A DNA stretch of 64,000 nt from Candidatus Zambryskiibacteriota bacterium (GCA_048499675.1 JASNZL010000001.1:58747-122746); one strand, 5' to 3'; shown: positions 37,054 through 41,205, counted from the stretch's first letter. The notes: generated by a model from the letters alone, not told the origin. Numbers and translations are program-made.

Positions 37054-38244
37054 ATGACTAGAGATCTAGTTGTAAAATACCTGAAAATCGTAGCTTCACT
37101 GCTTGGGCTCTGGCTTGTTAGAATTCTATGGGACAAGGTGTCAATACCAAAAGCTCCAGAAATGACCCTGCCTATAATCTGGGGCACCCTAGCCGGTGTC
37201 TTGATTCTTTTTGGTTTTGGTCTTTTGTTTTACATATTGACCAGACCAAAAACAGAAGAAACAGAGAAGAGTAAAGACACTCCTTCTGAAACTCTTAAAT
37301 GGGTTAAAGAAGGTGCGGGCCTTTCCCTAATTCTGATTACAGTAGGGCTCATCATTTTCAACCTCGTAAGTTGGGCGATGATTCCCTGGTGGTGGAATGT
37401 ACTGTTCCACACTTGGTACACCTTGGTCTTTTTCAATATAGCCATGGGTACAATCCTTTTCCTGATAACCCTCAAACAAAAGGGTCCTGATGGAAAGGAT
37501 ACCAAGGAGGCAAACCCAACCGCATCAAGGTTGGCGAGTCTAATCGGATTACTCTTAGCGCTTGGGATTGGAACAATCATCTTTGAAAAGGTGACAAAAG
37601 AGGCAGATCTCTTTAGTTCCACCCAACCGATTGTCCTCCAACCCTCCTTCCAGCCGGACTTGCCGGCGGAGATCGCGCTTCCGATTATCGCAGAGTGCGA
37701 ATCGGGCGGAAAACACTTTGAGGAAGATGGTGTTACTCCCCTCAAGAACAAAGAGGGTTCAAGCGCCATCGGTAAGTATCAGATTCTCACCTCCACACAC
37801 GAGGAGCGAGCAAAGTCCATGGGGTTTGACATCAAGACCCCAGAAGGATACGAGGCTTACGCCAAAGTGCTCTACTCGGAGCCCGACGGCATCAAGCACT
37901 GGCTTGCGGATAGTCGAGCCAAGGAATGCATCGAGAAAGGACTCAAGGGTAACTTTGATTCTGAGTATGGGAAAAGGGTATGGAAAATGGTCGTGGAAGC
38001 ACCGACCGAGGGTTGGACTACGTGGTACCCAGCCAAATATTTTGACCTGAGTATTGAAGGAGAAGATCGTATTAAATCTTCCTACAAAACAGAATTTGTG
38101 ACCACTGAAGGTGTAGTTGTTACTGAAGCGCCTCGTGATCTACAAAAAAAGATACCAGGAATCACAGAAAAATACAGATTCAAATCACTTGAAAACAAAC
38201 CAGTGAAAATAATCGTCACACTGACGCCCTACAAAGCTAAGTGA
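37054..38244 (+). CDS. Polytopic membrane protein with a C-terminal lytic-transglycosylase (SLT/lysozyme-like) domain.
   Basis: 4-5 N-terminal TM helices, then AECESGGKHFEEDG...SSAIGKYQI, which resembles the family-1 LT catalytic Glu-Ser ... GxxQ motif. Confidence 0.4.
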   Translation: MTRDLVVKYLKIVASLLGLWLVRILWDKVSIPKAPEMTLPIIWGTLAGVLILFGFGLLFYILTRPKTEETEKSKDTPSETLKWVKEGAGLSLILITVGLIIFNLVSWAMIPWWWNVLFHTWYTLVFFNIAMGTILFLITLKQKGPDGKDTKEANPTASRLASLIGLLLALGIGTIIFEKVTKEADLFSSTQPIVLQPSFQPDLPAEIALPIIAECESGGKHFEEDGVTPLKNKEGSSAIGKYQILTSTHEERAKSMGFDIKTPEGYEAYAKVLYSEPDGIKHWLADSRAKECIEKGLKGNFDSEYGKRVWKMVVEAPTEGWTTWYPAKYFDLSIEGEDRIKSSYKTEFVTTEGVVVTEAPRDLQKKIPGITEKYRFKSLENKPVKIIVTLTPYKAK

Positions 38245-38301
38245 TGACGTACCGCGCCACTCCCACCGAAGGAGTAGGCGCGGTTTTTGTTTACAAAGTT
38301 A

Positions 38302-38697
38302 TTATGGAGTTGAGGTGCCACAGAAAAACAGATCACAAGGTATATTGAATGTATTTATAATTAGATTTAGCAACCCAAAAACAGAAAACATTATAAGAAG
38401 ACCGACTACTCCATACATAACAGCGCTTCTTTTTTTATCCAAATCCCCACCGTCTGCTCCCCATATAAGCTGGACTATGGAATAAAACAAATAAACAGTG
38501 GCCACAACAAATCCTAAAACAATAATAGGGTTTACAATAAGGACGGCTATCTTGCCTAGTAAATTTTTGACTGTAGACTGAGCATCTACCATCAAAGGCA
38601 AAAGAAACAATGGTAAATAAATTGCTATTTTTTTCATATATATATTATTATATTTTATTGCTTTATTTGCAAACAAAAAATGCGGACATATCCGCAT
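38302..38697 (-). CDS. VirB2/TrbC-like T4SS-pilin-family small membrane protein, paralog 1 of 7.
   Basis: Signal peptide ending DAQ, two hydrophobic helices separated by a charged loop (WGADGGDLDKKRSAVMYGVVGLL). Shares this architecture with six tandem neighbours. Confidence 0.5.
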   Translation of the reverse strand: MRICPHFLFANKAIKYNNIYMKKIAIYLPLFLLPLMVDAQSTVKNLLGKIAVLIVNPIIVLGFVVATVYLFYSIVQLIWGADGGDLDKKRSAVMYGVVGLLIMFSVFGLLNLIINTFNIPCDLFFCGTSTP

Positions 38698-38722
38698 TTT
38701 TCGTTTTAAAATCTTTCTGTGA

Positions 38723-39073
38723 TTAAGGGGTTATATCAGGTATCAAGTTGCCTACGTCTGGAGCAGTACCTGAATCTATATCAAGGTTCCCTTGCAACCA
38801 GTTAACAAGTCCCCAAACCGAAGCCATAACGAAGAGAGCGACAACTCCCCATATCATAGTTTTCTTTGCTTGTTCCTTGTCGTGATCTGCTCCAAATATG
38901 TACTTGACCAAACCATAGAAAAATCCAAGTACAGCTAGCGCAAATATTATTGGTATAAGAATTTCTACAATTCTACCAATTGATAGCGCCAAGCTTTCTA
39001 GGTTATCCAAACCTTGTGCAAAAGATACAACAGGAAGGAATAGAGCGCCGGCGATTAAAGCTATTTTTTTCAT
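38723..39073 (-). CDS. VirB2/TrbC-like T4SS-pilin-family protein, paralog 2.
   Basis: MKKIALIAGALFLPVVSFAQ signal, then ILIPIIFALAVLGFFYGLVKYIFGADHDKEQAKKTMIWGVVALFVMASVWGLV. Confidence 0.55.
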   Translation of the reverse strand: MKKIALIAGALFLPVVSFAQGLDNLESLALSIGRIVEILIPIIFALAVLGFFYGLVKYIFGADHDKEQAKKTMIWGVVALFVMASVWGLVNWLQGNLDIDSGTAPDVGNLIPDITP

Positions 39074-39163
39074 ATAATTTTTTTGTCCCCCAAGAATTTA
39101 TTATATTCTTATACGGGATAAATTAATAATTTTTAACGACCATTTAATAATTATAACATACTT

Positions 39164-39580
39164 CTACTGATTTTCGCCAGTAGAATTATACCAAACTTGA
39201 CTCCAGTCCTGACCATCTCCTCCTATTGAAGGAATTGGTACGCTCGTGTTACCTCCAGAACCCAGCAATTCAGTCTGCAAAAAAGCAACCAAACCCCAAA
39301 CCGAAGCCATAACGAAGAGAGCGACAACTCCCCAAACCATTATTTTCTTTCCTTCATCCTTTTCACTACCTGCTGACCTTATGTACTTTGCAACTCCCCA
39401 GAAGAAGAAGAGAAGGGCCAGTGTAAAGACAATAGGAATAATAATACGTGTAACAATTCGTCCTGCGTTTGTAAGAAGTATATTTGTTCCAGATAGAGTG
39501 CCTCCAGTCTGCGCAGTCTGCGCAAAAGAAATAATTGGAGTGAGTAAACCACTGATTATAATTGTTTTTATTTTTTTCAT
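39164..39580 (-). CDS. VirB2/TrbC-like T4SS-pilin-family protein, paralog 3.
   Basis: Signal ...ISFAQ. IIPIVFTLALLFFFWGVAKYIRSAGSEKDEGKKIMVWGVVALFVMASVWGLV. Divergent Gly/Ser-rich C-terminal tail. Confidence 0.55.
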   Translation of the reverse strand: MKKIKTIIISGLLTPIISFAQTAQTGGTLSGTNILLTNAGRIVTRIIIPIVFTLALLFFFWGVAKYIRSAGSEKDEGKKIMVWGVVALFVMASVWGLVAFLQTELLGSGGNTSVPIPSIGGDGQDWSQVWYNSTGENQ

Positions 39581-40051: not shown

Positions 40052-40056
40052 ATAAA

Positions 40057-40341
40057 CTAAAATTTAATCTGAGGTATAACCACATCTGCACCAAAACCTA
40101 ACTCACTTTTTATAAAAGAAATTATACCCCAAATTGTAACTAGAATAAACATACCAACAACTCCCCAAATAAGTAAATTTTTACTGTCTTTTGTGTCTTT
40201 TTCACTTCCGGATGATTTAATATATCGAGCCACACCAATCAAAAAGACAAAAAAAGCCAAAGCGCCCATAAAGGGTATAAGTGTTGATACAATATTTATA
40301 AACATTGTTATTAACTCACTGATTGTCTTAGGACTAGTCAT
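40057..40341 (-). CDS. VirB2/TrbC-like T4SS-pilin-family protein, paralog 5 (shorter, no obvious cleavable signal).
   Basis: LIPFMGALAFFVFLIGVARYIKSSGSEKDTKDSKNLLIWGVVGMFILVTIWGII. Confidence 0.5.
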   Translation of the reverse strand: MTSPKTISELITMFINIVSTLIPFMGALAFFVFLIGVARYIKSSGSEKDTKDSKNLLIWGVVGMFILVTIWGIISFIKSELGFGADVVIPQIKF

Positions 40342-40365
40342 AAGGTTATGTTTTATATTTAAATA

Positions 40366-40785
40366 CTAACTCTTTAATTCATTTATTGTGCCTTGTATTA
40401 CTTCAGATATTACCCACGCACCAAGCAAAATTGCAGAGCCTATTAAAGCCCATTTTAGCGATTCTTTGGCTTTTGTAATCTGAGTTTCGTTGCCTCGAGC
40501 TGTAACAAACAAAAATCCTGAGAAAATAATCATAACTACTGCAACTACAGCACCTATTGGTATTAGTATTTCATCAACTATAGCTTTGACTAAATCAGGA
40601 ATAGTCTTCGTTTTAAAAGGATTGTCTATTTTTATGTTGTAAGACACTGGGTTTGTAGCAGGTCCATCTCCTCCAGTTGCAGTTTGATTTCCTCCTCCAG
40701 AAGCTTGTTGTGCCATCAATAAAGAAGGATAAAAAGCAATGAATAATATAACTAATAGACCAAAAAATTTATTAACTTTATTCAT
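40366..40785 (-). CDS. VirB2/TrbC-like T4SS-pilin-family protein, paralog 6 (more divergent).
   Basis: Signal ...LLMAQQ. Gly-rich linker. Two hydrophobic helices with a charged loop (TARGNETQITKAKESLKWALIGSAILL). Confidence 0.45.
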   Translation of the reverse strand: MNKVNKFFGLLVILFIAFYPSLLMAQQASGGGNQTATGGDGPATNPVSYNIKIDNPFKTKTIPDLVKAIVDEILIPIGAVVAVVMIIFSGFLFVTARGNETQITKAKESLKWALIGSAILLGAWVISEVIQGTINELKS

Positions 40786-40794
40786 GTAATTTTA

Positions 40795-41205
40795 TTAAAA
40801 ATTTATAGGCAAATAAACCGAGTTATTATTACCAATCAGGACATTTATTAATGTACTAACTATAAGCCACGCCGACAATATAAAAACGAAACCAATAAAA
40901 ACTTTAGCCAGCATTGATTTTGCCTCTGATTTTTTGTCCGCAATTCCACTTGTCATATAGACAAATCCTGCCCAAGCGATAACTCCTGTTGCTACCGGAA
41001 CAGAGACAACAAGCAACCATCCCAAAATATTCTTTATCAGTTGAAGCAAATCATTATAGCCACACTCTTTATTTGGCCCTCCACAATCAGGAACTAGCCT
41101 GTTTGGAGCTTCGTCTTGAGCAAATCCAAGCAAAGGAAACAGTGAGACCACAATTAGAACCAGAGCCATCAAGAAATATTTATTTTTTTGTAAAAACACC
41201 AACAT
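40795..41205 (-). CDS. VirB2/TrbC-like T4SS-pilin-family protein, paralog 7 (more divergent).
   Basis: Signal ...LGFAQ. Two hydrophobic helices with the loop TSGIADKKSEAKSMLAKVFIGFVF. Confidence 0.45.
   Translation of the reverse strand: MLVFLQKNKYFLMALVLIVVSLFPLLGFAQDEAPNRLVPDCGGPNKECGYNDLLQLIKNILGWLLVVSVPVATGVIAWAGFVYMTSGIADKKSEAKSMLAKVFIGFVFILSAWLIVSTLINVLIGNNNSVYLPINF

Follow-up and report, generated by a model that had tools for sequence, protein, structure and literature searches.

A tandem array of seven divergent VirB2/TrbC-like pilin genes and two conserved partner genes in a Candidatus Zambryskiibacteriota genome

A large part of all uncultured bacteria are Patescibacteria, which apparently live fastened to the cells of a host. 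A 64,000-nt chromosomal stretch from Candidatus Zambryskiibacteriota bacterium (GCA_048499675.1, JASNZL010000001.1:58747-122746), referred to here as the window, was found to carry between positions 37,054 and 41,205 seven consecutive small minus-strand genes beside a gene for a membrane-anchored lysozyme-like protein. An earlier, sequence-only reading of this DNA had taken the seven for VirB2/TrbC-like pilin paralogues diversifying as exposed surface filaments. The question raised by the locus is whether these genes are interchangeable versions of one pilin or a fixed set of distinct subunits, and whether they serve a type IV secretion system (T4SS). Here the locus is interpreted, with a probability of about 0.6, as the pilin (surface-filament) module of a Patescibacteria T4SS whose ATPase is encoded elsewhere.

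The seven pilin genes and their family

The genes were numbered P1 to P7 from the low coordinate upward, all on the minus strand. Scores below refer to the Pfam families PF18895 (T4SS_pilin, gathering threshold 26.6 bits) and PF04956 (TrbC/VirB2, 27.9 bits).

38302-38637, minus strand: pilin paralogue P1, 111 aa from the ATG at 38637; T4SS_pilin E 0.02, 15.4 bits (below the threshold)
38723-39073, minus strand: pilin paralogue P2, 116 aa; T4SS_pilin E 1.4e-12, 47.9 bits
39164-39580, minus strand: pilin paralogue P3, 138 aa; T4SS_pilin E 7e-7, 29.7 bits
39662-40051, minus strand: pilin paralogue P4, 129 aa; T4SS_pilin 25.7 bits (0.9 bit under the threshold)
40057-40341, minus strand: pilin paralogue P5, 94 aa; T4SS_pilin E 5e-7, 30.1 bits
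40366-40785, minus strand: pilin paralogue P6, 139 aa; T4SS_pilin E 1.5e-10, 41.4 bits; TrbC 26.9 bits (just under the threshold)
40795-41205, minus strand: pilin paralogue P7, 136 aa; T4SS_pilin E 1e-12, 48.5 bits; TrbC 31.2 bits

The seven products are mutually homologous. Pairwise identity ranges from 17 to 52%, with 34% between P1 and P2, and a hidden Markov model (HMM) built from the seven recovered each of them with E 1e-31 to 1e-47 and no other match in the window. PF18895 is the top Pfam match of all seven, of which P2, P3, P5, P6 and P7 pass its gathering threshold, while PF04956 is exceeded by P7, narrowly missed by P6 and not matched by P1-P5. The NCBIfam model NF045849 (a pilin-like conjugal transfer protein of the Mbov_0395-family, from the Mycoplasma integrative and conjugative element, ICE) matches six of the seven weakly, with E-values from 3e-8 to 0.02, all under its 40-bit cut-off. 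Each paralogue displays two hydrophobic segments with a short charged loop between them in hydropathy analysis. Searches of Pfam, NCBIfam and PHROGs disclosed no holin or competing two-transmembrane (two-TM) family among the matches of the seven, and a holin or phage origin was rejected, the PHROGs search having given no annotated match. The Pfam profiles thus placed the paralogues in pilin families and in no unrelated two-TM family, and the sequence-only reading is borne out as to the seven consecutive homologous genes, their two-helix architecture and their family. Membership of all seven in the VirB2/TrbC pilin superfamily is supported by these comparisons. VirB2 arrays of Patescibacteria are recognised as two or more PF18895 or PF04956 genes in tandem or with a single gene in between, of low mutual identity and chromosomal; here seven stand in tandem.

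Leaders ending in Ala-Gln and predicted to be signal peptides are present in six paralogues, ending FAQ in P7, P3 and P2, MAQ in P6 and DAQ in P4. Such a leader had been attributed to all seven, but P5 has none: its open reading frame (ORF) begins just ahead of the first TM segment (TM1), and a leader is impossible because the upstream spacer measures only 24 nt. The P5 orthologues discussed below likewise have no signal peptide in nine of the 11 listed loci, whereas those of P2, the best fit to the family profile, always carry one. Leader presence varies among orthologues, the leaderless ones beginning exactly at the predicted mature N-terminus. Signal-peptide segments do not look recently exchanged among the paralogues: their DNA shows no similarity past the first 15 nt.

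Each position has features of its own. The mature N-terminus of P7, the most TrbC/VirB2-like member, holds a Cys-x(n)-Cys pair that is kept in its orthologues. In P6 the mature N-terminus is long, rich in Gly, Ser, Thr and Pro and marked by a conserved NPF motif, and a tail is essentially absent. P4, 44-50% identical to P3, has a long variable tail, and P3 a VPIPSI motif followed by a long low-complexity tail. The P1 tail ends in FFP or bears a Cys pair, and most P1 orthologues are about 88 aa long with no signal peptide. The tails had been described as completely different from one another; this is not so, since a hydrophobic-Pro-x-hydrophobic motif, placed 8-15 residues past the second TM segment (TM2), is common to P2-P5, P7 and the orthologues of these; 28 of the 72 tails have it, compared with 11.2 +/- 2.9 after shuffling.

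Of note, a 44-nt tract in TM2 of P3 (39294-39337) is 95% identical in nucleotide sequence to P2 (38811-38854), with all synonymous sites matching, whereas the rest of P2 and P3 is about 55-60% identical. Judged from the sequence, it is a likely product of a short gene conversion.

Conserved gene order and positional orthology

Three flanking genes enter the comparison with related genomes.

37054-38244, plus strand: membrane-anchored lysozyme-like protein, 396 aa, with AECESGG...AIGKYQI
41208-42488, minus strand: orphan membrane-anchored solute-binding-protein (SBP)-fold gene, 426 aa; SBP_bac_1 E 8e-15, SBP_bac_8 E 4e-13; 2 nt upstream of P7
35804-36937, plus strand: SPFH/Band 7 gene; Band_7 E 5e-13; upstream of the lysozyme-like gene, with its own terminator at 36949-36969

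Both the SPFH gene and the 396-aa membrane protein had been reported correctly, but the latter had been placed immediately upstream of the array. It is instead a plus-strand gene that converges on P1, stop to stop with 57 nt between them, and the true upstream neighbour is the SBP gene, itself preceded by gyrA. No ABC permease or ATPase partner for the SBP turned up among the scanned window ORFs.

A scan for the enzyme domain in one genome per species gave 43 loci that encode it. In every locus with a long, five-TM form of the enzyme (L001-L011 and L039) a convergent pilin array follows, with 6-8 pilin ORFs on complete contigs, two in L002 (an incomplete contig) and four in L039. The order lysozyme-like gene, 6-8 convergent pilin genes, SBP gene is kept in at least 12 loci, with GyrA 71-98% identical, and past the array the SBP gene is followed by gyrA; the record labels of these relatives are mostly Zambryskibacteria, Parcubacteria and Paceibacterota. 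The same arrangement was seen in L045, found via its SBP protein, and three further loci (L047-L049) show the SBP gene and then the first pilin genes, their contigs stopping before the enzyme. The SBP gene adjoins the array in every related locus, transposase-bearing ones included. Iterated HMM searches found no pilin array near the short distant relatives of the domain (L012-L044). The SPFH gene is present in L045 and genes weakly similar to it in L001 and L009; whether it is part of the module is uncertain.

Two side observations concern these loci. An IS200/IS605-type Y1 transposase gene lies between gyrA and the SBP gene in L047, L048 and L049, the SBP-pilin junction being intact. Two of the seven pilin genes of L001 (10994-11344 and 11402-11632) are uncalled in the public annotation, and published pilin counts per array may therefore be underestimates.

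Assignment by best hits together with a neighbour-joining tree disclosed that positions 1, 5, 6 and 7 are each monophyletic over all genomes, and position 2 among the nearer ones. Positions 3-4 are fluid: P4 is missing in more distant genomes and an extra P3-like copy occurs in L003; P4 is the youngest position. Orthologues are 45-70% identical (P2 45-71%), as against 17-52% between paralogues, and the hallmarks of the positions, namely the Cys pair of P7, the NPF motif and missing tail of P6, the leaderless P5 and the FFP or Cys-pair tail of P1, recur across genomes. As the paralogues are ancient and positionally orthologous over at least 12 genomes, they form a fixed set of distinct subunits and not a variation cassette.

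The lysozyme-like neighbour, transcription signals and sequence change

AlphaFold models of the enzyme comprise about five TM helices (residues ~8-177), a helical domain (205-298) and a beta-sandwich (300-392), with a pLDDT (predicted local distance difference test) of 76 at full length and 89 for the catalytic domain alone. The lysozyme-like domain had been called C-terminal; it is central (~205-298), the beta-sandwich coming after it. Only 22 close homologues were found among 5.8 billion clustered proteins, and C215, E216, S217, G240, H249, W283 and C292 are invariant in the homologue alignment. By sequence, the window protein matched none of the Pfam profiles SLT, SLT_3 and Transglycosylas even with E-values up to 1 admitted, and the 22 family members gave a single faint PF06737 match (E 0.058). 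Searches of the PDB by sequence, with the single protein and with a profile, returned TM-helix noise only, and NCBIfam gave no match. Foldseek with the full-length model found just weak cupin-like matches to the beta-sandwich (best E 4e-3), and therefore the catalytic domain was modelled alone; the E-values of the top-ranked Foldseek proteins are not significant. E216 stands at the end of the first helix, the place of the catalytic Glu in the lysozyme/lytic-transglycosylase fold, so that at the level of the fold the domain has what defines the lysozyme-like superfamily, a helical structure whose first helix carries the catalytic Glu at its C-terminal end. Short proteins distantly related to the domain match SLT (E 1e-3) and SLT_3 (6e-3) below the cut-offs, and one of them is fused to a peptidoglycan-binding domain. 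From loops rich in Lys and Arg (62-85 and 140-156), an outward orientation is predicted for the catalytic domain and the beta-sandwich, which agrees with the invariant Cys pair. On the strength of its model, the enzyme is assigned to a new sequence family in the lysozyme-like superfamily, outside Pfam SLT. Its architecture of five N-terminal TM helices and a hypervariable C-terminal beta-sandwich is unique and differs from those of Rpf (RpfB/C/E), EtgA, VirB1 and Slt/Mlt.

Four predicted transcription signals lie in the locus.

36976-37003, plus strand: consensus sigma-70-type promoter, TTGACA-16-TATAAT with TG; 12/12 hexamer matches, best in a 9.7-kb scan
38251-38284, no strand assigned: GC-rich hairpin between the convergent stops of P1 and the lysozyme-like gene; dG (folding free energy) -24.9, z -4.4
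38672-38644, minus strand: promoter-like site before P1, ending 6 nt ahead of its start codon
38669-38706, minus strand: intrinsic-terminator-like hairpin between P2 and P1; dG -20.3 kcal/mol, z -6.2; flanking A and U tracts

The promoter at 36976-37003 precedes the lysozyme-like gene directly after the SPFH terminator, and the hairpin at 38251-38284 would terminate this gene, as a T run follows it on the plus strand; it probably also blocks P1 transcription. P7 to P2 are co-oriented, with spacers of at most 90 nt and no terminator until past P2, and this stretch showed neither strong promoters of single genes nor invertible repeats nor a silent-copy structure; the pilin operon probably begins with the SBP gene. 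No shuffled sequence folds as well as the 38669-38706 hairpin, which is predicted to set P1 apart as its own transcription unit; the P1 transcript may be separate and possibly leaderless. A 131-aa reading of P1 was rejected, its first 20 codons falling inside this hairpin, and the start was set at the ATG at 38637 (111 aa) for the same reason. The P2-P1 terminator and promoter stretch is 96-97% identical to that of L045, against 40-44% for the P4-P3 and P3-P2 spacers. The only RNA genes that Rfam and tRNA scans revealed in the window are eight tRNAs, none of them inside the locus.

Divergence was measured against one close relative, L045. Amino acid identity is 98% for GyrA and 94% for the SBP; it is 95% for P1, the most conserved pilin, 85% for P2, 84% for P6 and 82% for P7, all four with a low ratio of nonsynonymous to synonymous substitution (dN/dS), and falls to 71% for P5, 61% for P4 and 58% for P3, the fastest-evolving pilin. 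Within the enzyme it is 90% in the TM part and 89% in the catalytic part, but about 38-41% past residue 276. The P3 and P4 tails show a 17-residue difference between the window genome and L045, P4 carrying 17 extra tail residues in this comparison. Pilin cores are conserved, with a dN/dS of 0.12, and the quickest change is in the exposed N-termini and the tails, where dN is 0.6-0.7 in P3-P5; the N-termini of P3-P5 reach a dN/dS of up to 0.75 over 34 codons. Positive selection did not emerge, dN/dS exceeding 1 in no gene or region of this one comparison, which is a weak test because several segments are saturated at synonymous sites.

The proportion of synonymous differences (pS) in the variable segments is about 0.8, against 0.28-0.46 in the remaining enzyme gene, where synonymous saturation is confined to the C-terminal third. 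Residues 276-396 of the enzyme (37879-38241) are mosaic, 276-310 sharing 86% identity with a homologue (P0006) that is otherwise distant. This saturation and the mosaic suggest allele replacement by recombination and not mere faster substitution, and the sequences point to allele exchange in P3-P5 and in the C-terminal domain of the enzyme. The description of the genes as diversifying paralogues is accordingly valid at the level of alleles, for P3-P5 and the enzyme C-terminus, and not for the paralogues themselves, which are old positional orthologues.

The remainder of the window is a low-GC chromosomal segment with the housekeeping genes murB/C/D, clpB, infB, gyrA, groEL/ES and tsaD. It includes an 8.5-kb integrated element (24984-33538) bounded by 42-nt direct repeats (95%) at 24984-25025 and 33497-33538, the first of which covers the 3' end of tRNA-Leu(TAA) plus 21 nt. 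The element has a GC content of 45-53% versus about 35% elsewhere, is not present in L045, and carries a large serine recombinase (25238-26890), an aldo-keto reductase, a peptidase S51 and others, together with two class-II aminoacyl-tRNA-synthetase-like genes, one with the catalytic domain only. A 244-aa gene by tRNA-Lys (33622-34356) is 19% identical to the gene at the same position in L045, which has a faint LAGLIDADG_3 match, versus 76% to that of the more distant L010, which suggests that it is mobile or has been replaced. Beside murB, murD and murC, an unusual fusion of 503 aa (1177-2688, minus strand) joins an N-terminal XRE-type helix-turn-helix to a full EPSP-synthase/MurA-type enolpyruvyl transferase domain. 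Two giant surface proteins are predicted on the minus strand, one of 2,860 aa (6837-15419) with fn3, Ig-like and PA14 domains and one of 1,457 aa (49774-54147) with repeated bacterial Ig-like domains.

Function of the module and known systems

In the interpretation preferred here, the pilins would enter the cell membrane as N-out/C-out hairpins, six of them by means of a Sec signal peptide cleaved after Ala-Gln. They would be extracted by a VirB4-driven machine whose genes lie elsewhere on the chromosome, and they would assemble into a pilus-like or conduit structure of several distinct subunits. The five-TM-anchored enzyme, its catalytic domain outside, would most likely cut peptidoglycan locally, and we infer that it is a VirB1-like wall-opening partner. 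Its beta-sandwich and the variable termini of P3-P5, exchanged between strains, would probably set target or host specificity.

This agrees with what has been published for the phylum. From a survey of 3,035 Patescibacteria genomes by PF04956 and PF18895, PMC12102498 reports VirB2-like pilins in 1,948 VirB4-positive assemblies, with pilin genes near virB4 in just 1,135; it lists 383 assemblies as carrying 441 arrays, which have 2-11 genes, a mean identity of 25% and a maximum of 54%. Its tables mark VirB4 as present in 22 of 25 Zambryskibacteria assemblies, the L008 genome included. In Southlakia epibionticum, the one species tested, the pilin series in the T4SS cluster is reported to be essential (PMC10633639, Wang et al. 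2023; PMC12857230), and the review PMC12857230 holds the Patescibacteria systems to be unique among monoderms for having the potential to build conjugative pili.

Several points weigh against this interpretation. To our knowledge no PF18895 protein is known to form a filament, and we know of no characterised conjugative pilus with as many as seven different subunits. P1 and P4 stay below the PF18895 threshold, yet they are clear homologues of the remaining paralogues. By sequence, the enzyme has no match to SLT, VirB1 or Rpf models. Pfam scans of the window ORFs of at least 400 aa gave no VirB4, VirB11 or VirD4, as the sequence-only reading had noted, and no VirB4, VirB6, VirD4 or other T4SS component was found in the 64 kb of the window or, in related loci including the flanks of L001 and L045, at a distance of up to 10 kb from the array; the link to a T4SS therefore comes from the family name and published surveys, not from this genome. 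Monoderm T4SSs normally have no pili (PMC12857230). Finally, synteny with the relatives extends over the entire neighbourhood (IF2 ... gyrA ... MBL), and adjacency of enzyme and array is by that fact weak evidence for their connection.

This synteny bears most directly on the enzyme, which might be a general wall-remodelling enzyme (Rpf or growth type) unrelated to the array and next to it by accident. Its gene has its own consensus promoter and terminator, short distant relatives of its domain occur with no pilin arrays nearby, and most VirB2-bearing genomes are without VirB1 according to PMC12102498. The gene is convergent with the array in at least 12 loci, but the region is syntenic throughout and no T4SS machinery gene adjoins it. 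An incidental position is nonetheless somewhat doubtful, given that the five-TM form is confined to array-bearing loci and always directly convergent, while the other flank varies, and that the mosaic hypervariability of its C-terminal domain is the same as in P3-P5.

The small proteins could also be something other than filament subunits, either membrane-resident parts of a T4SS channel or stalk (PrgF-/VirB3-type) or members of a T4SS-independent envelope complex with the SBP. Monoderm T4SSs have no known pilus (PMC12857230), and the tables of PMC12102498 include Paceibacteria pilin/PrgF-like clusters away from virB4 that are partly picked up by the FATA_PrgF profile; the present array does not adjoin virB4 either, several orthologues have no signal peptide, and the linkage to an orphan SBP gene is clade-wide. 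Such a role is considered unlikely, since the top profile matches are pilin families, with the canonical TrbC/VirB2 for P7, a hairpin whose core is conserved and whose exposed termini vary is what polymerising pilins look like, and an adjoining wall-cutting enzyme fits best something that crosses the wall.

A variation cassette, in which the seven would be interchangeable alternatives of one pilin, one or few expressed at once to evade recognition or switch host strains, is in line with the sequence-only reading and was also suggested for Patescibacteria arrays in PMC12102498 by analogy with the VirB2 paralogues of Bartonella and Anaplasma. The low paralogue identity (17-52%), the variable tails with 17 residues gained or lost in P3 and P4 between close relatives, the shifting copy number at positions 3-4 (P4 absent in distant loci, an extra copy in L003) and the short P2/P3 tract resembling gene conversion all fit it. 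It is distinctly improbable here, since each position is its own orthogroup with its own features (P7 Cys pair, P6 NPF, P5 leaderless, P1 FFP), P7-P2 are co-oriented with short spacers and have no individual strong promoters, invertible repeats or silent copies, and P1, P2, P6 and P7 are conserved at 82-95% with low dN/dS; the reported essentiality of the S. epibionticum pilin series (PMC10633639) also argues against redundancy. A very improbable extension, offered as speculation, is that the seven pilins are non-redundant subunits of a heteropolymeric, T4SS-derived nutrient-uptake pilus, self-contained with the enzyme and the SBP, in which the beta-sandwich and the P3-P5 termini would be host-recognition cassettes and the SBP would capture host-derived material.

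Set beside known systems, the closest are the Patescibacteria VirB2-like arrays (Quinonero-Coronel et al. 2025, PMC12102498), likewise tandem, divergent, chromosomal paralogues of the same family with no relaxase. Strain ML1 of S. epibionticum (PMC10633639) has six pilin genes inside its T4SS cluster (SEML1_0006-0019), whereas no T4SS gene lies within 64 kb here. The SBP and five-TM enzyme partners and the one-to-one positional orthology are not mentioned in the parts of these two papers used here. VirB2 (Agrobacterium Ti), TrbC (RP4) and TraA (F) share the small size, the signal peptide and the two hydrophobic helices with a short polar loop, and undergo cyclisation (VirB2, TrbC) or acetylation (TraA); they belong to diderm systems with one major pilin beside virB4, in contrast to seven distinct genes in a monoderm-type cell. 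Bartonella (Trw) and Anaplasma phagocytophilum likewise amplify virB2 in tandem, with variation proposed to alter the surface (as cited in PMC12102498), but their copies are treated as variants of one pilin in animal pathogens, while each position here is an old orthogroup. The Mbov_0395-family (NF045849) and PrgF (MPF-FATA) are similarly small two-TM proteins of monoderm T4SSs, encoded by single genes in ICE transfer clusters, unlike the seven-gene array.

Since divergent VirB2-like pilin arrays were already published in 2023-2025, this is not a new kind of system, and the value of the locus is incremental, the basic phenomenon being in the literature. What is new is the conserved three-part module of array, enzyme and SBP, the positional orthology of the pilins and the map of their variable parts. 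The locus provides a Paceibacteria example in which the pilin module stands apart from the ATPase genes and the paralogues are a fixed, distinct set with two conserved partners, one from a new family of lysozyme-like proteins and the other an orphan binding protein. It thereby gives concrete targets for studying passage through the cells' own wall and the recognition of hosts.

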